Of a stretch of 11,099 nucleotides of DNA, positions 491 to 7,605 are shown in pieces (position 1 is the stretch's first letter; the number at the start of each line of letters is the position of its first letter). Under the pieces are notes generated by a model that saw only the letters and a program-made list of their open reading frames with translations, had not been told where the DNA came from and searched no databases. Both the position numbers and the translations under genes were made by a program. The stretch is from the UHGV virus genome UHGV-0313617; one strand, 5' to 3'. Origin of the DNA: a virus.

Positions 491-2755
491 ATGAGCTTAA
501 TTAAATTCGCTGTAACAAGACCCGCTAAAAAAGGCGAAAAAGCCAGGGCGGAAAACTTCCAGATGACCACCGATGAATTTTTCGAATTTATCAAAGATGC
601 GAAAGAAATCTCCTCGGTGCATATCAACAAGACGGAAGATAAAGCCGAGTATGCGCGCCGCAAGCGTAAGGCCGACGGCATCGTGGCGTATACCAGTGAC
701 GGATTGCGTCGTAAGACCAGTGCGGTGGACCGCTCGATCCTGTTCTTCGATATCGACCGTACCGACACCCGCACCCTACGCCGCTGCCGTAAGGCGTTCA
801 TTGACGCGGGTCTGGAACATGTGTTTCACACCACAACCGGCGACCGTCACCCGCTTAAAGGTGGAACGCGTTGCGCTCGATTCCTGGTGCTCACTGACAA
901 GCCTGTACCGGCTGAAGACCTGGGCCGCGTCCAGTATGCACTATTACACCAACTGGGTCTGTCAGATGTGGACTTCGACGATTGCACGAAAGACACAAAC
1001 CGCCTGATGTACCTGCCACACCAGCAGTCTGTTATTAAGTGCCACTATGGCAAGCGCGCCCGCGTCCGTCGTCTGCTCCGCCTGGCTGACAAGCTGGGGG
1101 TGGAAAAAGAGGAAGTACGCCGCGAGCTTACCCAGGGCGACGACGCAGTGGCAGACGGTATTCTGGACTGGTGCTTCCAGGCAGGATTCGAGGAGTTATC
1201 TTCCGGGCGGGGCTATGAAGTGCCGTGCCCGAACGAACATCTGCACAGCGGCGAAGGGTCCACCGCTATTATGGTCAAGGATGGCGAGATCCGTTTCAAG
1301 TGTATGCACACCGGCAACGAGTGTTGCTCGGAACTGAACAGACACCAGCACCTGGCGCTGCGTCTTATCGGGATCCCGGACCACCTGAACGTCGAGCCAC
1401 ACAATATGTCCCGTAAGCAAATCGCCGCCATCCTTCCGGGGCTGGACGACGAGGAAGTCGAATCCTTATATGAACATATTGTTGATGCGGTTGGCGACGG
1501 CGAAGAATACGGCGTGTGCACCGATGCGGATCTGGATAACGAGCCGGTTGCGCTGTTCAGTAAGCACGACCCGATTATCGAGGGGTTGATTAACTTTAAA
1601 TCGACCTGGTACATGGCGGGTGAGTCGAATATAGGTAAGTCTTTCTACGTGCTGGGCCAGATGGGCGCGGTTGCCGCGGGTATTCCGTTTGGCGGTGCGA
1701 AGGTCGTCCAGTCTCATTGCTTCTATTTTGACGCGGAAGGTGGCGAAGCCTCCAACCAGCGTAAAGAAGCATTGCAGATTAAATATGAGCACGACCTGGA
1801 CAAGCTGCACATTATAGACCTGCAGTCACGCGGCTGGGATATCACCAGCAAATCAGGCTTGCGCGAAGTTATCAGCTTTATCAACCGCACCGCTAACGGC
1901 GAACCGGTTGGCCTGGTGGCGTTCGACTCACTCAACCAGACTGTTGCGTTGCGGTCCGCTGATGCTAAACCGTTCGACGAGAACAACGCCAGCGATATGG
2001 GTGAAGTGGTCAAAGCGCTGAAGGCCATCGCGGAAAATACAGGTGGCAGTGCGGGCGTCATCCACCACCCGGCTAAAGGTGCAAACGGCAGCAGAACGCC
2101 ACGCGGGTCCGGCGCGCTGCATGGTGCTGTCGATTCTGCGTTCTTCCTGGAACAGCCGGACGACAACCAGCCCGGACAATTGAACCTGTATCACGAAAAG
2201 TCACGTAACGGCATCAAGCAAGCGCCGCGCGGCTTCGTCCTGCTCAAGTGCAAGGTGAAGGTGGATCTCCGCAAGTCAGAAGCGTTCGAGGCGCACCAGT
2301 CCACCAGCACCGGGCCAGACTTTGGCGACGTGGTTGCCGGATGGGACGTCAAGCCGATTGCCTCCACGCCACGCGACGAGACTCTCTACCTCGTACCGGT
2401 TGCCCTGGCACCTTTCGCTATTGAACAGGCGAAGGCGGCGGGCAAGGCCGCGGTTAAGGAAGAGAACACCGCCGGACCGCGCAACGAAAAAGAGAAAGTG
2501 CTTTATGCGGCACTGGAAAAACTGATGGAAGATAACCCGGACCATACTGGATTCAGTAAATCGGCAATTGTCCGCCAGGCGGGACTCGCAAAAGGGGGCA
2601 CGTCGACGAAGGCAATCGACGATATGGTGGAGCGCGGAGTAATAGGTTTTTATACCGATCCGCACACCGGGGCCCTCTATGGGTCGTCTAATTTGGTCAT
2701 CAAATCGGATATCCCTATCACGCTTTCAGCGACCGATGACGATTTAAAAGATTAA
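491..2755 (+). CDS. Replication protein: primase-polymerase-like N-terminal domain, Cys/His zinc-ribbon, RecA-like (AAA_25/RepA-type) ATPase, C-terminal putative winged-helix domain
   Basis: 754-aa ORF. Acidic DxD motif ILFFDIDRTD (nt ~741-764). Cys/His cluster CPNEHLHSG...FKCMHTGNECC (nt ~1225-1325). Walker A GESNIGKS (nt 1619-1642) and Walker B-like LVAFDSL. C-terminal ~100 aa look like a small helical DNA-binding domain. Confidence 0.85.
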   Translation: MSLIKFAVTRPAKKGEKARAENFQMTTDEFFEFIKDAKEISSVHINKTEDKAEYARRKRKADGIVAYTSDGLRRKTSAVDRSILFFDIDRTDTRTLRRCRKAFIDAGLEHVFHTTTGDRHPLKGGTRCARFLVLTDKPVPAEDLGRVQYALLHQLGLSDVDFDDCTKDTNRLMYLPHQQSVIKCHYGKRARVRRLLRLADKLGVEKEEVRRELTQGDDAVADGILDWCFQAGFEELSSGRGYEVPCPNEHLHSGEGSTAIMVKDGEIRFKCMHTGNECCSELNRHQHLALRLIGIPDHLNVEPHNMSRKQIAAILPGLDDEEVESLYEHIVDAVGDGEEYGVCTDADLDNEPVALFSKHDPIIEGLINFKSTWYMAGESNIGKSFYVLGQMGAVAAGIPFGGAKVVQSHCFYFDAEGGEASNQRKEALQIKYEHDLDKLHIIDLQSRGWDITSKSGLREVISFINRTANGEPVGLVAFDSLNQTVALRSADAKPFDENNASDMGEVVKALKAIAENTGGSAGVIHHPAKGANGSRTPRGSGALHGAVDSAFFLEQPDDNQPGQLNLYHEKSRNGIKQAPRGFVLLKCKVKVDLRKSEAFEAHQSTSTGPDFGDVVAGWDVKPIASTPRDETLYLVPVALAPFAIEQAKAAGKAAVKEENTAGPRNEKEKVLYAALEKLMEDNPDHTGFSKSAIVRQAGLAKGGTSTKAIDDMVERGVIGFYTDPHTGALYGSSNLVIKSDIPITLSATDDDLKD

Positions 2756-2830
2756 ATTCTGCGCGCATTGGTTGCCGATATGGGAATTCCCATATCGGTA
2801 AAAGATTAAATTCTGCGCGCATTGGTTGCC
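2745..2830. repeat. Two identical 32-bp direct repeats flanking a 20-bp perfect palindrome
   Basis: TAAAAGATTAAATTCTGCGCGCATTGGTTGCC at 2745-2776 and 2799-2830. The first copy overlaps the stop codon of the replication gene. Between them lies GATATGGGAATTCCCATATC (2777-2796), a perfect palindrome. Each repeat holds the 8-bp palindrome TGCGCGCA and ends in ATTGGTTGCC. Confidence 0.9.
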
Positions 2831-2915
2831 ATTTTGAGTGTTTTTATCTGGTCGTATTGGTTGCCGTGTAGTGTAAATATAGTGAATAGTTATGCAATAA
2901 AACTGCATAAAGTAA

Positions 2916-3018
2916 GCGGGACAAAAAGCGGGACAGACCAGGGGCGGGACAAAGCGGGACAGCACCCCTGTCCCGCCCCGGATGACGCGGCCTGGCGAGG
3001 AGCGGGACAGCGGGACAG
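2916..3018. repeat. Array of seven GCGGGACA(G/A) iteron-like repeats including a perfect 9-bp-stem hairpin
   Basis: Copies at 2916, 2928, 2944, 2954, 3002 and 3010 (forward) and 2968-2976 (inverted). 2954-2976 reads GCGGGACAG-caccc-CTGTCCCGC. An AT-rich stretch (2866-2915) precedes the array. Confidence 0.85.
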
Positions 3019-3024
3019 CACCCC

Positions 3025-3073
3025 AGTCTTTCAGACTAGACGGGGGGTCTGGCACCCCCCTCGTCTGAGACTG
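3025..3073. repeat. Imperfect inverted repeat / hairpin with a GGGGGG...CCCCCC core
   Basis: CAGTCTTTCAGACTAGACGGGGGG-tctggca-CCCCCCTCGTCTGAGACTG. The arms CAGTCT/AGACTG, CAGAC/GTCTG and G6/C6 pair, with bulges. Confidence 0.7.
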
Positions 3074-3232
3074 CATAAAATCCGGGATTGCATAATACAC
3101 GGCAACAAGATGCGAATTGCGGTCGTCGATGAACTAGGCAACCAATGCGAGTTGCAGAATGGTGGGTGAAAAATGCAGTTTGCAGTTTCAGCAGATAGCG
3201 ATCAACTTTTTCATACGCGTGATTAATATTGG

Positions 3233-3261
3233 TTGCGCCCACCCCAGCACCCTGCTATATT
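3233..3261 (+). promoter_or_regulatory. Promoter candidate for the downstream small-gene cluster, overlapped by ATTGGTTGC motifs
   Basis: TTGCGC (3233-3238), 17-nt spacer, TATATT (3256-3261). ATTGGTTGC copies at 3228-3237 and 3259-3268 overlap the -35 and the -10/+1 region. Confidence 0.4.
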
Positions 3262-3289
3262 GGTTGCACACCAACATGAGGACTGAACG

Positions 3290-3595
3290 ATGAGAGCTTT
3301 AATCTGGAATTACACAATGGCGGTGGCGAAGCTGTATGAAGCGAAGCACACAGACAGCAACGCAGACGACGCGCGCCAGGTTGTCATCCTGGCCCAGCAG
3401 GGAATCATGCACGCGTTCGATGATATGTTTGCCAGCCTGGACGAACTGGAACCGCTGCGCGTGGCAATCTGCGAATATGCGATGGCTTTTGCCCGCGAGC
3501 GCCTGGCGTATCGCTTCGGGATCGGTGAGACGGCAGTGACAAACGTCGCCCGGATTAAAGCCCAGCGCGAGCTATTCGCCCAGCTTGCGAAATAA
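3290..3595 (+). CDS. Hypothetical protein
   Basis: 101-aa ORF with a GAGGA Shine-Dalgarno 7 nt upstream of the ATG. No recognisable motif. Confidence 0.6.
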   Translation: MRALIWNYTMAVAKLYEAKHTDSNADDARQVVILAQQGIMHAFDDMFASLDELEPLRVAICEYAMAFARERLAYRFGIGETAVTNVARIKAQRELFAQLAK

Positions 3596-3604
3596 GGGGG
3601 CAAA

Positions 3605-3874
3605 ATGGACCGCAGACGCGCAAAACGGCTTTCCTGGAGCATTAGCCTGCATTGCGTACGAATATGGGCTGAGAATGCGAATGAGGGCGATTCTGTGTTC
3701 TGGAGTTATCGCGACGATGTGAAGCCATTAACGCAGACCCGCTACTTGCGCCAGTTCGCAGCGAAGCACGGATTCTATGTGCGGACTTCCTTGCAACCAA
3801 TGGGTGTTCGTATTACATTACGCCGGAAGCCTGCCATTGAGCGGGCAGGAAAACACTGGAGACTGAGCAAATGA
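3605..3874 (+). CDS. Hypothetical basic protein
   Basis: 89-aa ORF with an AGGGGG Shine-Dalgarno just upstream. Arg/Lys-rich. Its stop overlaps the next start (ATGA). Confidence 0.6.
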   Translation: MDRRRAKRLSWSISLHCVRIWAENANEGDSVFWSYRDDVKPLTQTRYLRQFAAKHGFYVRTSLQPMGVRITLRRKPAIERAGKHWRLSK

Positions 3875-4035
3875 ACAAGCAACCTGAACGCTGGCGGAGT
3901 AAGGCCACGCGACTGACTTACTTCGTGACAGAAGAAGCAAACGGCAACGTGACTATTTCACACCCTAAGTGTGGTACTCGCCGCACTATCTCGCGCCTCA
4001 CATTAGTTCGTAACTACAGGAGATTGACAGAATGA
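3871..4035 (+). CDS. Hypothetical small protein (54 aa)
   Basis: Not in the supplied ORF track; read by hand as MNKQPERWRSKATRLTYFVTEEANGNVTISHPKCGTRRTISRLTLVRNYRRLTE. ATGA overlap with the upstream gene (3871-3874) and with the downstream gene (4032-4035). GGAG lies 9 nt upstream. Confidence 0.45.
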   Translation: MNKQPERWRSKATRLTYFVTEEANGNVTISHPKCGTRRTISRLTLVRNYRRLTE

Positions 4036-4571
4036 AAATGATATTCCGCAATAAGCATAATGGGAGATTCCTTACCCCGATTGAAGTGCTGCCGAACTAT
4101 GTTCGCATGTACCATGAAGCCAGCGACCGCGTATTCTGGTACAAGAAAGCCACCCTGCATGAGCATTTGCAGGTAGTGCACCATGACGTCCGCGTAGGTG
4201 ATGTGCTGCGTGATGTGCGTGACGGGTCGCTGTTAGAGGTGCTCCGCGTGAGCACGGACGGCGTTATGCTGCGCAGTGGTAAAACACAACGCGGCGTTCT
4301 GCTCACGGGCCTGGTGAATTACGCCCGCGTAGGCCGTAACTATAAACTTAAGCGCCCTGGTGTAGTGGCGAAAGAGATCACCCGTACGGAACACCCATAT
4401 ACCAAATACGACGAGCGCAAGGTGCGCGAGCATATCGACAACGCCAGGGCGCAAGCTGCCGCCATGATTCAGGCTGGCAACGATGCCAAACGATTTGGGA
4501 TTGGTGTTATTCTGGTCTACCCCGACGGCAGCATGAAGTCTACCGATCCGCGCGGGGTCATTCAGAAATGA
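4032..4571 (+). CDS. Hypothetical protein
   Basis: 179-aa ORF with an AGGAG Shine-Dalgarno at 4018-4022, 9 nt before the ATG. Protein-like composition and no Cys. No recognisable motif. Confidence 0.65.
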   Translation: MKMIFRNKHNGRFLTPIEVLPNYVRMYHEASDRVFWYKKATLHEHLQVVHHDVRVGDVLRDVRDGSLLEVLRVSTDGVMLRSGKTQRGVLLTGLVNYARVGRNYKLKRPGVVAKEITRTEHPYTKYDERKVREHIDNARAQAAAMIQAGNDAKRFGIGVILVYPDGSMKSTDPRGVIQK

Positions 4572-4708
4572 GTGCGACGATCCGGGATATGCTTCAGCAT
4601 AACCGCTTTGAGATAGGCGGTCGGGTATTTCGCAATTACTTCGTGGCGCGTGCATGGGCGCGCCATATTGGCAAGCCGGAAGGGGCAATTCGATGCTACA
4701 CGATTTGA
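4568..4708 (+). CDS. Hypothetical small protein (46 aa)
   Basis: Read by hand: MSATIRDMLQHNRFEIGGRVFRNYFVARAWARHIGKPEGAIRCYTI. Its ATG overlaps the stop of the upstream gene (ATGA at 4568-4571). No strong Shine-Dalgarno, so it would depend on translational coupling. Confidence 0.35.
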   Translation: MSATIRDMLQHNRFEIGGRVFRNYFVARAWARHIGKPEGAIRCYTI

Positions 4709-4980
4709 TATATTGGTTTGGATTGGGGTGTGCGACACTCTTTGCTATGGTGCTGGCGCTGTTGGTGTGGGTCTTCCTGATTTGGCCCGCTGTGGAAGCT
4801 GCCAGTATTACCCGCATGACGTTCCAGATATACAAGCGCCGTGGAATCACGGAGCACCCGACCAGGTTGCGCATGTGGTGGCTGTGGTATCGCGATATGA
4901 TAGGGGGCCGGATGTTCGAGGCCGTCCGATCGGAAGGGTGGGAGTGGAAAGGCGTCGGCAAGTGGTCCATTTTCGATTAA
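4693..4980 (+). CDS. Hypothetical single-pass membrane protein with a Trp/Arg-rich C-terminal region
   Basis: AAGGGG Shine-Dalgarno at 4681-4686, 6 nt before the ATG at 4693. One hydrophobic helix (IYWFGLGCATLFAMVLALLVWVFLIW). The track's longer version starts at 4654 in the same frame but has no RBS. Confidence 0.55.
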   Translation: MLHDLIYWFGLGCATLFAMVLALLVWVFLIWPAVEAASITRMTFQIYKRRGITEHPTRLRMWWLWYRDMIGGRMFEAVRSEGWEWKGVGKWSIFD

Positions 4981-4997
4981 TTATGCAAGCGTGATAT

Positions 4998-5032
4998 AGT
5001 CCCAGTGAGATAAAACTTACTGGGACTTTTTT
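4998..5032 (+). terminator. Rho-independent terminator candidate directly abutting the holin start codon
   Basis: Stem AGTCCCAGT (4998-5006) pairs with ACTGGGACT (5017-5025), followed by TTTTTT (5026-5032). The next base is the ATG at 5033. Confidence 0.6.
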
Positions 5033-5323
5033 ATGGATAAGCTAAACGAGTGGTTATTCGCCCTTGCGTGTCTTGCTGGTGGCTTCGTAGGCGCACGCAT
5101 TCATGGCGAGGCAACGAAAGGGCCGTTGAACTTCGTTTTATATATCGTGGTTGGCTTCCTGTGTGCCATATTTGGTGCTCCAGCTATTGCCGAGTGGTCT
5201 GGTTTGTCTGGCGAGCGCACTGTCGCCGGTTTGGGCTTCGTAACTGCCATCTTCTGGATGCCAATAGCTGACCGGATCCGGGAGACAATTGCGACGCTAC
5301 ACCTTCCGGGGGGCGCGAAATGA
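5033..5323 (+). CDS. Putative holin (three predicted transmembrane segments, charged C-terminus)
   Basis: 96 aa. Hydrophobic segments WLFALACLAGGFVGA, LNFVLYIVVGFLCAIFGAPAIA and VAGLGFVTAIFWMPIA. Sits immediately upstream of the endolysin. Stop overlaps the next start (ATGA). Confidence 0.7.
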   Translation: MDKLNEWLFALACLAGGFVGARIHGEATKGPLNFVLYIVVGFLCAIFGAPAIAEWSGLSGERTVAGLGFVTAIFWMPIADRIRETIATLHLPGGAK

Positions 5324-5565
5324 TTATTACCGTCCTGTTGTTTGTTATCATAGGGGCTTCGTCCCTGTTTAACGTGTATGCGCCGTCCGTCCAGGACGGC
5401 ATCTTAGGCCGGGTGTTGTATCTGTTAACGGCAATGGTCTGTATTATCGGATTGTTGCAAACAGGAGACGTATCAGATACCACCTGGACCGCGTTAATCT
5501 GGCTGTTTGCATTGCGCACCCTGCGTAATGCTGTTTTGAATGGGGTAAAACATGCGATTCAGTGA
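5320..5565 (+). CDS. Second holin-like small membrane protein (holin, antiholin or partner)
   Basis: 81 aa with 2-3 hydrophobic segments (IITVLLFVIIGASSLF, ILGRVLYLLTAMVCIIGLL, WTALIWLFAL) and a basic C-terminus. Overlaps both neighbours. Confidence 0.65.
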   Translation: MIITVLLFVIIGASSLFNVYAPSVQDGILGRVLYLLTAMVCIIGLLQTGDVSDTTWTALIWLFALRTLRNAVLNGVKHAIQ

Positions 5566-6043
5566 CAACGGTCTACGATTTACGGCAGCCTGGGAGGCAT
5601 TCAGCCCAGTGCCGTATTTCGCGACCAAGAAAGAGCAGGCCCGCGGCCTGTACACCTGGGGCTATGGTCACACCGGCACTAATCCGCCACGAAGCATTAC
5701 CCGTGCGGAAGCGCTGGAACTGCTCAAGCGAGATGTGGCGTATGCCGAGGACTGGGTGAACAAATACGCACATCCGAGCATTAACCAGGCGCAATTCGAC
5801 GCGCTGGTGGATCTGGTAATCAACGCCGGTCCTGGTCCGATCGTGCCGGATGACGTCGCGAACGATTTCGATGATGCGGTGCGACTGGGCGACTGGGCGA
5901 AGGTCCGTGCTATTCTGCCGCAGTTCCGCAAGCAAGGCGGATCGGTGCTCTTAGGTCTGGTCCGTCGCGCAATCGGCAGGCAAGCACTATTCGAGGGTAA
6001 GCAGTGGGACGTTGCCGAGAAAATCGGGCGTAACGCAGCATAA
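5552..6043 (+). CDS. Endolysin, phage lysozyme (glycoside hydrolase family 24-like)
   Basis: 163 aa. Motifs typical of T4/P22-type lysozymes as I recall them: N-terminal Glu (WEAF), GYGHTG, NQAQFDALVDLVINAG, and a C-terminal RRAIGRQALF. Positioned after the holin genes. Confidence 0.8.
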   Translation: MRFSDNGLRFTAAWEAFSPVPYFATKKEQARGLYTWGYGHTGTNPPRSITRAEALELLKRDVAYAEDWVNKYAHPSINQAQFDALVDLVINAGPGPIVPDDVANDFDDAVRLGDWAKVRAILPQFRKQGGSVLLGLVRRAIGRQALFEGKQWDVAEKIGRNAA

Positions 6044-6059
6044 TACGAGGTAACACAGT

Positions 6060-6473
6060 ATGTTAAAAAGCATTCTTGATCATAACGCCGACGCACTTGC
6101 TGCACTGGCTAAAACCGAAGACCCTGGCGCACGCGCTATCATCGCGGACACTATCAGCCATGCAGGCGTCTTTGACGCTAAGCTGCCGAGTGTTCCGGAA
6201 AGAAAGCCCGTGAAAAGTGCTACCGTGACTATCACACCGAATTCAGTCGCAGTTGACGGAACGGCTACTGCTTCTGTTGACGTCTTGCCCGCTGACGCGA
6301 CTAACAAGACAGGGGTCTGGGTGTCTACGAACCCTGCCGGTGCAGAAATCGATGCAAAAACTGGCAAAATCACAGCAAAATCGGCAGGTGGCGTTTATAT
6401 GTTTTGGGTGGCTGCCGACGGTAGTGGGGTGCTGGGGTCTGCGACCATCAACGTAACGGAAAAAGTAGAATAA
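6060..6473 (+). CDS. Big_2 (bacterial Ig-like) domain protein of unknown role
   Basis: 137 aa with a GAGG Shine-Dalgarno 9 nt upstream. The C-terminal ~85 aa (ATVTITPNSVAVDGTATASVDVLPADATNKTGVWVSTNPAGAEIDAKTGKITAKSAGGVYMFWVAADGSGVLGSATINVT) match the Big_2 beta-sandwich pattern. No signal peptide or transmembrane segment. Confidence 0.7.
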   Translation: MLKSILDHNADALAALAKTEDPGARAIIADTISHAGVFDAKLPSVPERKPVKSATVTITPNSVAVDGTATASVDVLPADATNKTGVWVSTNPAGAEIDAKTGKITAKSAGGVYMFWVAADGSGVLGSATINVTEKVE

Positions 6474-6479
6474 AACACA

Positions 6480-6503
6480 AGCCCGGAATCAACCGGGCTT
6501 TTT
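6480..6503 (+). terminator. Rho-independent terminator after the lysis cassette
   Basis: Stem AGCCCGG (6480-6486), loop AATCAA, stem CCGGGCT (6493-6499), then a T-run to 6503. Confidence 0.75.
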
Positions 6504-6508
6504 ATTGC

Positions 6509-6537
6509 TTGACTCGCAACCAACATAGGCCCATACT
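6509..6537 (+). promoter_or_regulatory. Weak promoter candidate carrying two GCAACCAA motifs
   Basis: TTGACT (6509-6514), 17-nt spacer, CATACT (6532-6537, poor -10). GCAACCAA at 6516-6523 and 6538-6545. A strong Shine-Dalgarno (GAGGAGGAGGA, 6548-6558) follows. Confidence 0.35.
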
Positions 6538-6568
6538 GCAACCAAACGAGGAGGAGGAGTAACACATC

Positions 6569-6655
6569 ATGGCGCGTAACGATATTTATGTAATAGCAAT
6601 ATGGTCCGCAGCGGCCTTTATTGGAATGGCAATTTGTGAGGTGATGAATGGCTGA
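6569..6655 (+). CDS. Candidate 28-aa hydrophobic micro-protein
   Basis: Read by hand: MARNDIYVIAIWSAAAFIGMAICEVMNG. GAGGAGGAGGA lies 10 nt upstream. The stop TGA sits inside the sequence AATGGCTGA that contains the next ATG. Confidence 0.4.
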   Translation: MARNDIYVIAIWSAAAFIGMAICEVMNG

Positions 6656-6722
6656 GTTAATCCGCCTTATGGCGCGAGATGAACACGTAAAAGTCACATT
6701 CTACGATGGTGGGAAGTGTTGA
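6648..6722 (+). CDS. Candidate 24-aa micro-protein
   Basis: Read by hand: MAELIRLMARDEHVKVTFYDGGKC. Start overlaps the upstream micro-ORF. Its stop (6720-6722) is one nt before the ATG at 6724. Confidence 0.3.
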   Translation: MAELIRLMARDEHVKVTFYDGGKC

Positions 6723-6723
6723 G

Positions 6724-6936
6724 ATGATTAGACAAGTATTCATGAGCACGCAGGCCACACGCCTGAAAGAGCTACGCAAACAACTCGAAGGCTTGCGCCG
6801 ATTCGAACGAACGGCAACGGCAATAGGCATGTCAATCAGTGAGCGGATCGAGATACTATCTCAAATACGCTACACAGAAGGCGCCATACGCGAAGTAGAA
6901 AGCATGTTAACCCGATACTACGGTCGCGCCGTTTAA
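6724..6936 (+). CDS. Hypothetical small protein (70 aa; alternative start at 6706)
   Basis: ORF in the track as 6706..6936. The ATG at 6724 is immediately after the upstream stop (TGTTGAGATG). Helical, charged sequence. A terminator follows. Confidence 0.5.
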   Translation: MIRQVFMSTQATRLKELRKQLEGLRRFERTATAIGMSISERIEILSQIRYTEGAIREVESMLTRYYGRAV

Positions 6937-6943
6937 CCCTCCC

Positions 6944-6969
6944 AGCCCGCCGATTTGGTGGGCTTTTTT
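6944..6969 (+). terminator. Rho-independent terminator
   Basis: Stem AGCCCGCC (6944-6951) pairs with GGTGGGCT (6957-6964), with one G-U pair. Loop GATTT. T-run 6964-6969. Confidence 0.65.
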
Positions 6970-6983
6970 GTGCCTGTTATAAT
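6955..6983 (+). promoter_or_regulatory. Extended -10 promoter candidate for the packaging operon
   Basis: TGtTATAAT at 6975-6983 (perfect TATAAT at 6978-6983 with an upstream TG). A weak -35 TTGGTG (6955-6960) lies 17 nt upstream, inside the terminator's 3' arm. Confidence 0.5.
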
Positions 6984-7053
6984 CCCCCTTAGATGGCAGG
7001 GCCGTCTCCTATGTTGCCGATGGTCGGCGCATATGCACAAAAGGGCTTAAATC

Positions 7054-7605
7054 ATGGCAGAAATCAAAGTTAAGGGCCGTCGCGCCAAACTGGACGGTAG
7101 AGTGGCAGTTACCCCGCGCCGTAAACCAGGCGAGCAAACCGAACATACCAATCTCGGACCTGAGATCGAATATGGCAAGCGTCGTAAAGGCGGCAAATGT
7201 GGGCGCCCGACAGACTACCGCACTGTGTATTGTGACCAGCTTCGTCGCTATTTCGCCGATGCCGTAGCCTGGCAGATCAACTACTCCGACAAGGGGGCTG
7301 CGCAGGTAATCCCTCGCAACAAAATGCCAACCTTCGGCAGATTTGCCGCGGAAATCGGTGTGGGCGTCGCTTGCCTGTATCGCTGGGCGCGCGCACATGA
7401 GGAGTTCGCCGAGGCGATGGCGGACGCTATGGAATTGCAGAAAACCTTCCTGATGGAAGCTGGCGGCGTGACAATCGCGGCGGGCTTCGCTACGTTCCTG
7501 CTTAAAGCCAACCACGGAGTCCGCGACGATATCCCACTGGATGACGACGAAGATGATAACGGCGACGTCGTTGTTGAGCCTACCGGCAAAGGCCAGGGTG
7601 AGTAA
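7054..7605 (+). CDS. Terminase small subunit
   Basis: 183 aa with an AAGGG Shine-Dalgarno 8 nt upstream. The central region (KMPTFGRFAAEIGVGVACLYRWARAHEEFAEAMADAMELQKTFLMEAGG...FLLKANHG) resembles HTH-type small terminase subunits. Acidic C-terminal tail. Stop overlaps the large-terminase start (TAATG). Confidence 0.75.
   Translation: MAEIKVKGRRAKLDGRVAVTPRRKPGEQTEHTNLGPEIEYGKRRKGGKCGRPTDYRTVYCDQLRRYFADAVAWQINYSDKGAAQVIPRNKMPTFGRFAAEIGVGVACLYRWARAHEEFAEAMADAMELQKTFLMEAGGVTIAAGFATFLLKANHGVRDDIPLDDDEDDNGDVVVEPTGKGQGE

Follow-up and report, generated by a model that had tools for sequence, protein, structure and literature searches.

A putative nin-like operon of six small genes between the primase-helicase and lysis genes of a Dhillonvirus

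Between the primase-helicase gene and the lysis and late genes of virus genome UHGV-0313617 lies a block of six small genes, orf1 to orf6, which we analyzed in a stretch of 11,099 nucleotides (nt; hereafter the window). Sequence comparison identifies the window as Dhillonvirus DNA, that is, as part of an HK578/SO-1-like siphophage of E. coli. We consider it probable that the block constitutes a genus-wide, non-late operon of small accessory genes, which is similar to the nin region of lambdoid phages in position and layout. As judged from the alignment of 24 related loci (15 from IMG/VR and nine GenBank records), the block is separately promoted and terminated and consists of six real genes: five are fixed in every relative examined, while orf3 sits in a hot spot of swappable cassettes.

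Architecture and coding capacity of the operon

All six open reading frames (ORFs) are encoded on the plus strand, at the positions given by the original prediction, which had been made from the sequence alone: orf1 (3290-3595; 101 amino acids (aa); PHROG 9839), orf2 (3605-3874; 89 aa; isoelectric point (pI) 11.3; PHROG 12533), orf3 (3871-4035; 54 aa; pI 11.2; no PHROG match; accessory cassette 'family A'), orf4 (4032-4571; 179 aa; pI 10.1; PHROG 10243), orf5 (4568-4708; 46 aa; pI 10.8; PHROG 13628), and orf6 (4693-4980; 95 aa; PHROG 2531). The three ATGA start-stop overlaps reported at 3871, 4032, and 4568 are all present, and the 16-nt overlap of the last two genes was confirmed at 4693-4708; orf1 and orf2 are separated by 9 nt (3596-3604). 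For orf6, the start at 4693 had been preferred to the mechanically called start at 4654, and this choice is favoured by the Shine-Dalgarno sequence GGAAGGGG and by coverage of PHROG 2531 from residue 14. A purine-rich, Shine-Dalgarno-like stretch is found 6-11 nt before each of the six starts and is weakest at orf5. To judge the chain as a whole, we generated 500 dinucleotide-preserving shuffles of positions 3200-5040 and searched them for chains of ATG-started ORFs of at least 40 aa with gaps of -20 to +15 nt. A six-ORF chain with three ATGA junctions was obtained in none of them; the longest shuffled chain comprised four ORFs (4/500 shuffles), and no best chain contained three ATGA junctions. 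The geometry is also kept in relatives, which retain the ATGA junction of orf4 and orf5, the 16-nt overlap of orf5 and orf6 and, unless an insertion is present, the 9-nt gap between orf1 and orf2.

Transcription of the block would start from a promoter, P1, which together with its leader spans positions 3229-3282 (plus strand), as delimited by an alignment of 20 loci and by the positions of the boxes described below. Its core consists of TTGCGC (3233-3238), a 17-nt spacer, and TG (3253-3254) followed by c and TATATT (3256-3261), which yields the extended -10 element TGcTATATT. Across the 20 loci, the flanks are invariant and the 17-nt spacer varies, while the -35 block reads either TTGCGC or TTGCAT. 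A consensus scanner missed P1 because its -35 block matches at just three of six positions; the conservation nevertheless bears out the promoter candidate previously placed at 3233, which we predict to be of the extended -10 sigma-70 type. P1 carries two copies of a phage-specific 8-mer, TTGGTTGC: box 1 (3229-3236) overlaps the -35 element and box 2 (3260-3267) lies within the palindrome TTGGTtgcacACCAA (3260-3274). A Shine-Dalgarno sequence, GAGGA, follows at 3278-3282, before orf1. Four loci carry an additional ORF, which either separates P1 from orf1 or is fused to orf1 (giving forms of 158-160 aa).

At the opposite end, a predicted intrinsic terminator (4998-5032, plus strand) combines a 12-bp stem (4998-5027) with a T run that abuts the holin start codon at 5033. 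The 52-nt interval between orf6 and the holin gene is almost invariant in the 20 loci, the hairpin has a folding energy of about -24 kcal/mol, and the most divergent locus, L007, keeps it with one extra C-G stem pair. Given this conserved terminator between orf6 and the holin gene, the operon is expected to be insulated from the lysis genes. Thus, the block is framed by one upstream promoter (P1, 3233-3261) and one downstream terminator (4998-5032), with no strong signals in between: the internal matches of the promoter scanner (3381 and 4032) are weak (9/12) and fall within coding sequence. The proposal of a single, translationally coupled and co-oriented operon driven from 3233 is therefore in agreement with the junctions, the shuffle test, and the conservation of the promoter, all of which are features of the DNA; a literature search found no transcriptome or ribosome-profiling data for any Dhillonvirus.

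Two observations concern the inner junctions. The sequence TGATATATT at 4706 lies inside orf6, and positions 4706-4714 (TGATATATTGGTT), in the overlap of orf5 and orf6, resemble the -10 element of P1 and the start of its box (TGCTATATTGGTT); this resemblance might reflect a promoter within the operon that serves orf6, or it might be coincidental in coding sequence. In phage JLBYU60 (L002; 3406-3837), orf2 and orf3 are annotated as a single 143-aa fusion because the ATGA junction has been lost, and this fusion is either real or a sequencing error.

The terminator region might serve a second purpose. A candidate extended -10 promoter, P2 (TGaTATAGT, TGATATAGT; 4992-5000, plus strand), was identified by pattern match and by its conservation, which includes L007, and overlaps the 5' arm of the terminator hairpin. 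P2 is likely to be the start of the lysis transcription unit, which would then begin inside the hairpin. Since a transcript starting ~7 nt downstream of TGATATAGT would lack the 5' arm of the hairpin, it would not be terminated, and a single sequence might both close off the operon and launch transcription of the lysis genes. No clear Shine-Dalgarno site was found upstream of the holin gene. A similar terminator-promoter pair is found before terS, the gene for the small terminase subunit: at 6945-6983, a terminator (GCCCGCC...GGTGGGC plus T6) is followed after 5 nt by a perfect extended -10 element, TGTTATAAT, ~70 nt upstream of terS, and this element is likely to be the start of the packaging and structural transcription unit.

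Evidence that the ORFs are protein-coding genes comes from the ratio of nonsynonymous to synonymous substitutions (dN/dS; Nei-Gojobori method), which was calculated on codon alignments of 19-24 related loci per gene. We obtained 0.38 for orf1, 0.21 for orf2, 0.39 for orf4, 0.08 for orf5, the gene under the strongest constraint, and 0.20 for orf6; the corresponding ratio of polymorphisms (pN/pS) was 0.40 for the orf3 family, and the genes for primase, holins, and endolysin ranged from 0.07 to 0.12. Variation at third codon positions is in excess in all six ORFs. By these comparative measures, all six (0.08-0.40) are real coding sequences under purifying selection, and the same two signals lead us to accept as genuine the two small ORFs, orf3 and orf5, that had been called by hand. 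While it is true that both are short, that orf3 lacks a PHROG match, and that the Shine-Dalgarno sequence of orf5 is weak, it is hardly credible that they are chance reading frames: variable sites in orf5 are distributed 11/7/34 over the three codon positions and the gene recurs in 152 records, the orf3 family has kept its frame and length at 50-64% identity, and the ORF chain was not reached in shuffles. Within orf5, residues 19-36 stand out with a pN of 0.00 (0.01 for residues 13-24) against a pS of 0.19-0.38.

A further ORF of 44 aa (3159-3293, plus strand), which forms an ATGA junction with orf1 and is annotated as a coding sequence (CDS) in several GenBank records (JLBYU60_51, SM_S22 CDS0056), was considered as a seventh gene and rejected. 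Its dN/dS is 0.82, its variable sites are distributed 36/32/28 over the codon positions, and it carries frameshifting 1-nt indels in L001, L008, and L009. From this pattern, the interval is conserved regulatory DNA of P1 rather than a gene, and its annotation as a CDS in relatives is probably a mis-annotation.

The TTGGTTGC boxes extend beyond P1. The 8-mer is present in nine copies in the window (0.47 expected) and in 21 copies in the complete genome of phage SM_S22 (L004; 2.3 expected). Window sites are located at 2768, 2822, and 2857 (plus strand), 3138-3145 (minus), 3229 and 3260 (plus), 3793-3800 (minus), and 6516-6523 and 6538-6545 (minus), mostly in pairs and in promoter-like intergenic regions. 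Pairs also occur at the leader of nmad5 and upstream of the operon headed by ORF35/anti-Tmn; in SM_S22, ORF35 is the anti-Tmn protein and nmad5 is a trigger of Tmn defence (PMC11846954). The boxes are absent from the two other extended -10 candidates of the window, TGATATAGT at 4992 (before the holin gene) and TGTTATAAT at 6975 (before terS). We infer that the boxes are the operator of a phage regulator and mark a class of non-late promoters.

Several box-containing sites lie outside the operon. After the primase gene, the interval 2744-3150 contains two repeats of ~54 bp, each ending in a TTGGTTGC box (aaaagattaaattctgcgcgcaTTGGTTGCc); this is the region that the original prediction had called origin-like, with a run of GCGGGACA iterons at ~2917-3015 and several TGCA-containing repeats. 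In SM_S22, the P1 promoter with its leader recurs (TATATTGGTTGCACACCAACA, followed by GAGGAC and ATG) on the minus strand at 5745-5850, 81 codons inside CDS0006, which we take to be nmad5 from its position and the offset of 80-81 codons. The 'full' and 'truncated' versions of nmad5 differ by 80 residues (PMC11846954); given that the P1-like leader matches this difference, the shorter start may be real. Finally, two inverted TTGGTTGC boxes surround the -10 element of a promoter-like site in the window (TTGACT-17-CATACT), which is followed by a strong Shine-Dalgarno sequence, a 28-aa hydrophobic ORF (6569-6655), and a 76-aa ORF (6706-6936). The interval 6509-6936 may therefore be a second small unit under box control, located between the lysis genes and terS.

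Conserved core, variable alleles, and predicted products

The order orf1-orf2-(slot)-orf4-orf5-orf6-holin is found in 24/24 related loci. A tblastn search detected homologues of orf2 in 157 records and of orf4 and orf5 in 152 records each, every one from a Dhillonvirus-type phage; all but two of the 157 orf2 records are named Escherichia, Shigella, Sodalis, or Dhillonvirus, and none belongs to a recognised other genus. Searches of 5.8 billion proteins returned matches from ~44-45 kb contigs or shorter fragments only, without Pfam domains, and an exhaustive hidden Markov model search with the orf4 alignment against 1.84 billion representatives retrieved 23 proteins, all of them close relatives or fragments. 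The genes had been likened to compact ORFan operons, but five of them are not loose cargo: orf1, orf2, orf4, orf5, and orf6 are core genes with homologues in about 150 Dhillonvirus records, orf1 and orf4 being present as mosaic alleles. Only orf3 has the distribution of an accessory gene, being restricted to 25 of about 157 phage records.

The slot between orf2 and orf4 is either empty or occupied by one or more of four families, namely A (orf3), B (acidic), C, and D, with ATGA coupling retained. The acidic slot family has a pI of 4.1, whereas the window carries the basic family A. In an all-against-all BLAST of operon and slot proteins, the only similarities were those of family D to the second orf4 module (E 9e-7), which marks D as a paralogue of this module, and of family B to its own long form. 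Smaller insertion slots are found on either side of orf5, and the one before orf6 can hold a 33-aa membrane peptide. The idea that orf3 itself is a single copy of the beta module of orf4 was rejected (hhalign probability 0.1%).

The core genes differ in how fast they change. Identity between loci ranges from 56 to 99% for orf1 and from 37 to 100% for orf4, while flanking genes are mostly 91-100% identical (primase mostly 97-99%, with L007 and L011 lower). Alleles of orf1 and orf4 assort independently, with identities of 57% and 96%, respectively, in L016 and of 96% and 37% in L005. In windowed analyses, residues 19-53 of orf1 are variable (dN/dS about 0.7-0.8) and residues 66-101 strongly constrained; in orf6, the membrane segment varies freely and the juxtamembrane motif and tail are constrained (0.01-0.22). 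No window of any gene, including orf1 and orf4, is clearly above 1, and positive selection is therefore not established.

In agreement with the earlier statement that none of the six products carries a recognisable motif, we found no match to a curated family in Pfam, NCBIfam, or PADLOC, and PHROG assignments were to families of unknown function only. Sequence searches of the PDB with the six single sequences and with alignment profiles of orf1 and orf4 gave nothing at E <0.2, and Rfam returned only sub-threshold, terminator-like matches on 2700-7100. The homology and structure searches that had been proposed as a check did not assign an ordinary structural or replication role to any product of the block. 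The same holds for defence and counter-defence homology, of which none was found in Pfam, PHROG functions, NCBIfam, PADLOC, or the PDB; no dedicated library of anti-defence proteins was searched.

Models and sequence features provide some orientation. The predicted structure of orf1 is an up-down four-helix bundle, in which the middle (residues 19-53) is variable and the C-terminal half near-invariant, and the protein, with a pI of 6.1, is not basic. The near-invariant C-terminal segment of orf1, RERLAYRFGIGETAVTNVARI, resembles a helix-turn-helix (HTH), and a Pfam scan of orf1 homologues gave weak matches to HTH_Tnp_4 (23/35) and Cro (6/35), with best E values of 0.028 and 0.077 and bit scores far below the cut-offs. 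A Cro-like HTH regulator is therefore not supported for orf1, given the sub-threshold profiles and the four-helix bundle of the model. In phage Bas84 (L003; 2838-3317) and in proteins P0056, P0057, P0060, P0063, and P0098, orf1 carries an in-frame N-terminal extension of 58 aa, resulting in forms of 145-160 aa. Given that the internal Shine-Dalgarno sequence and ATG are kept, long and short forms may both be made.

Proteins orf2, orf3, orf4, and orf5 are strongly basic (pI 10.1-11.3), and orf2 matched nothing in Pfam, NCBIfam, PADLOC, or the PDB. The model of orf4 comprises two tandem five-stranded Tudor/SH3-like modules (residues 1-105), a linker of low confidence, and a C-terminal module of a helix and a hairpin. 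In this model, residues 1-105 form a five-stranded barrel that can be superimposed on known Tudor/SH3-like members, a fold common to many unrelated RNA-, DNA-, and protein-binding domains. A Foldseek search of BFVD with the model returned Dhillonvirus relatives only, plus weak matches with a TM-score of at most 0.3, and a Pfam scan of every member of the orf4 alignment gave sub-threshold matches only. Compared with Tudor-like domains that bind RNA polymerase (the C-terminal domain of PcrA/UvrD, the RID of CarD/Mfd, and the KOW domain of NusG/Spt5), orf4 shows 6-17% identity and no profile match.

The last product, orf6, had been described as a single-pass membrane protein with a Trp/Arg-rich tail, and its hydrophobicity and charge profile supports this description: there is a single hydrophobic peak (residues 5-34) with a charge of -1 in its N-terminal flank and of +3 in its C-terminal flank, which predicts a bitopic inner-membrane protein of N-out/C-in topology with a cytoplasmic tail. 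The juxtamembrane motif WPxVEAxSxTRMT is conserved. Alone among the genes of the operon, orf6 is common to Jerseyvirus: tblastn detected full-length homologues at 35-40% identity (E about 1e-13) in about 400 records, most of them from Salmonella Jerseyviruses, and a pairwise comparison with gp11 of phage sidste gave 36% identity over the full length (E 4e-22). Jerseyvirus further shares holin 2 (35%), the endolysin (about 50%), and terS (36%) with the window, which suggests that orf6 is an old companion of this late-gene neighbourhood. In Jersey, SETP3, and sidste, the orf6 homologue ends a run of small coupled ORFs and is followed by a terminator-promoter pair and a late gene. However, this Jerseyvirus block lies after the holin-holin-lysozyme genes, with the orf6 homologue behind several small ORFs and next to the gene for the small terminase subunit, whereas the block of the window precedes the lysis genes; the other genes of the Jerseyvirus block (NinH-like, DUF2737) are unrelated to orf1-orf5.

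Possible roles of the operon

Taken together, the following scenario would account for the operon. Host RNA polymerase might read it before the late genes, under the control of whichever protein binds the TTGGTTGC boxes, as at the promoters of nmad5 and anti-Tmn, and coupled translation would supply the products together. The basic, soluble products could act on nucleic acids or on the transcription or replication machinery of the host, and the outcome might be a cell that is conditioned for the phage or whose defences are blunted. We give a role directed at the host (broadly, takeover or counter-defence) slightly less than an even chance, and a role within the phage's own programme (regulation, replication, or recombination) a chance that is a little smaller but still substantial; a small share is left for something else. 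The suggestion of the original prediction that such an operon encodes anti-defence or host-takeover genes is neither refuted nor shown by our data and is possible. It is mildly favoured by the variability of orf1 and orf4, by the cassette slot of orf3, and by the operator that P1 appears to share with the anti-Tmn and nmad5 promoters.

Several observations weigh against reading the block as a non-late accessory operon with such tasks. No product has functional homology, which makes each functional statement an inference, and the raised dN/dS of orf1 and orf4 does not rise beyond about 1 and can be put down to relaxed constraint just as well as to an arms race. The fixation of five genes throughout the genus argues against classic accessory anti-defence cargo. 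None of the six is among the proteins named as detected in a proteomics study of the Dhillonvirus EE09, although that study found only four phage proteins in infected cells and few non-structural proteins (PMC10673088). No experiment on these six genes was found in the papers examined.

A strict anti-defence operon, in which at least one product inhibits a bacterial immune system and orf1, orf4, and the orf3 slot are arms-race surfaces, appears unlikely, although it would explain why orf1 and orf4 are far more variable than their flanks and why relatives carry alternative small genes in the slot, including a very acidic family. Small, early ORFan genes fit the usual profile of anti-defence genes, and P1 shares its box architecture with the promoter upstream of a proven anti-Tmn gene (PMC11846954). 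Yet no product matched any defence-related model in the databases listed above, five of six genes are fixed in all relatives, orf1 and orf4 lack a window clearly above a dN/dS of 1, and the slot of the window holds the basic rather than the acidic family. Moreover, the known Dhillonvirus players are all encoded elsewhere: when we asked whether anti-Tmn, Ksap1 (a trigger of KpAvs2; PMC11564622), nmad5, or the 56-aa protein of SECphi4 falls within the block, each mapped to another part of the genome. Anti-Tmn is located at 25924-26388 of L004 on the opposite strand, and Ksap1 between methyltransferase and phosphatase genes. In SECphi4, the DNA polymerase, SSB, and the 56-aa protein have been tied to escaper mutations, which in the case of the 56-aa protein (of unknown function) map to its upstream intergenic region (bioRxiv 10.1101/2022.08.27.505566). 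The converse proposal, a module serving the phage itself, with orf1 as a Cro-like autoregulator on the TTGGTTGC boxes and the basic products of orf2-orf5 acting at the origin-like region or in late transcription, strikes us as similarly doubtful. It draws on the position of orf1 directly after a promoter bracketed by two invariant boxes, on the HTH-like segment RERLAYRFGIGETAVTNVARI with its weak profile matches, on the repeat-rich intergenic region that the operon directly follows, on four products with a pI above 10, and on the near-invariance of orf5, as expected for the partner of an invariant site or machine. Against it, the Pfam matches are not only far below threshold but also mutually non-independent, orf1 is not basic, and a 109-aa protein encoded at 151-480 of the window, which matches HTH_23 and sigma-70 region 4, is a better candidate for binding the boxes.

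Two narrower proposals concern individual products, and both are improbable. In one, orf4 would be an adaptor to host machinery, its predicted barrels docking on the beta subunit of RNA polymerase in the manner of the domains of PcrA/UvrD, CarD, and Mfd, or on a different machine that handles nucleic acids. This would occur within a diversifying takeover locus, in which the mosaic alleles of orf4, the variable face of orf1, and the orf2|orf4 slot form a counter-defence locus under pressure from the host. If this were true, the regulon of TTGGTTGC boxes (the operon, nmad5, and the anti-Tmn operon) would amount to an early host-interaction programme. The other, which we rate even lower, makes orf6 a lysis accessory (an antiholin, a regulator of lysis timing, or a spanin substitute) that works with the adjacent holins. 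It is suggested by a membrane protein encoded directly upstream of two holin genes, by the occurrence of orf6, alone of the operon, in a genus that also shares holin 2, endolysin, and terS, and by the lack of a visible spanin gene after the endolysin gene in the window. However, a conserved terminator separates orf6 from the holin gene, and its Jerseyvirus homologue lies after the lysis cassette and directly before terS. Spanin features were not detected in orf6 either: unlike in a spanin, the conserved domain is predicted to be cytoplasmic, GLGC (residues 10-13) is not a canonical lipobox and is not preceded by a signal sequence, and there is no lysis annotation in PHROG. Of the earlier remark that orf6 stands next to the holin, the physical adjacency remains but the implied tie to the holin does not. 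Lacking conserved adjacency to, and predicted co-transcription with, the holin and endolysin genes, orf6 is, by gene order and signals, not part of the lysis cassette.

Genomic context and relation to known phage regions

The surroundings of the block are those of a Dhillonvirus. The 109-aa HTH protein (151-480) is followed by the primase-helicase gene (491-2755), the repeat-rich intergenic region, and the block, directly downstream of which are two holin genes (5033-5565) and the endolysin gene (5552-6043), and then genes for an immunoglobulin (Ig)-domain protein, the small and large terminase subunits, and the portal protein. Positions 3200-5050 are 99.4% identical to Escherichia phage phiEco273 (PP786691.1, genus Dhillonvirus), which annotates the same six CDSs, all as hypothetical proteins and with orf6 shortened to 77 aa. 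Matches to the region were found in 157 phage records, which with few exceptions are Dhillonviruses of E. coli, Shigella, Salmonella, or Sodalis. Over the whole 11-kb window, the best match in any record is at most about 92%, which suggests a new, mosaic Dhillonvirus as the source. Differences are also evident after the lysis genes: compared with L004 (43022-44690), the window (6060-7054) lacks a gene for a calcineurin-like phosphoesterase (DNA repair exonuclease), which is found between the Ig-domain gene and terS in SM_S22, phiEco273, JLBYU60, Bas84, and EE09 and is absent from L005 and L016. The Ig-domain gene is full-length (137 aa) in the window and truncated in phiEco273.

Counterparts of the block appear as bas18_0053-0060 in phage Oekolampad and as gp49-gp53 in the notes of the SECphi4 record; the SECphi4 gp numbers are borrowed from those of Sodalis phage SO-1, in which gp50-53 cover the block. 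Other Dhillonviruses differ from the window in their alleles of orf1 and orf4 and in their slot cassettes. The genes are not new, as they are annotated as hypothetical proteins in about 150 genomes, and there is a modest chance that they include a new host-interaction family. Dhillonviruses are among the commonest siphophage isolates of E. coli and have served as test phages in many defence studies (SECphi4/18, BASEL). For these phages, our analysis narrows the search to six real genes, of which five are core and one is a cassette, with orf1 and orf4 evolving fast and orf6 placed outside lysis, and the operator motif links the operon to promoters upstream of two genes already tied to Tmn defence. 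Should a product prove to be a takeover or anti-defence factor, it would represent a new protein family, given that the orf4 family comprises 23 representatives among 1.84 billion proteins. Otherwise, the block is a typical phage block of hypothetical genes.

The closest known parallel is the nin region of lambdoid phages, which contains ninA-ninI and is located between the replication gene P and the antiterminator gene Q. The two regions are different in content and control: none of the six products has homology to NinB, NinG, NinH, or another nin protein (no Pfam match), we recognised no gene for a Q-like antiterminator, five of the six genes are constant throughout the genus, and the block appears to have its own promoter and terminator, in contrast to being read through from an upstream early promoter. 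Nevertheless, both lie between replication genes and lysis or late genes, and both consist of small, mostly dispensable-looking genes on one strand that overlap by ATGA or abut one another and include mosaic slots.

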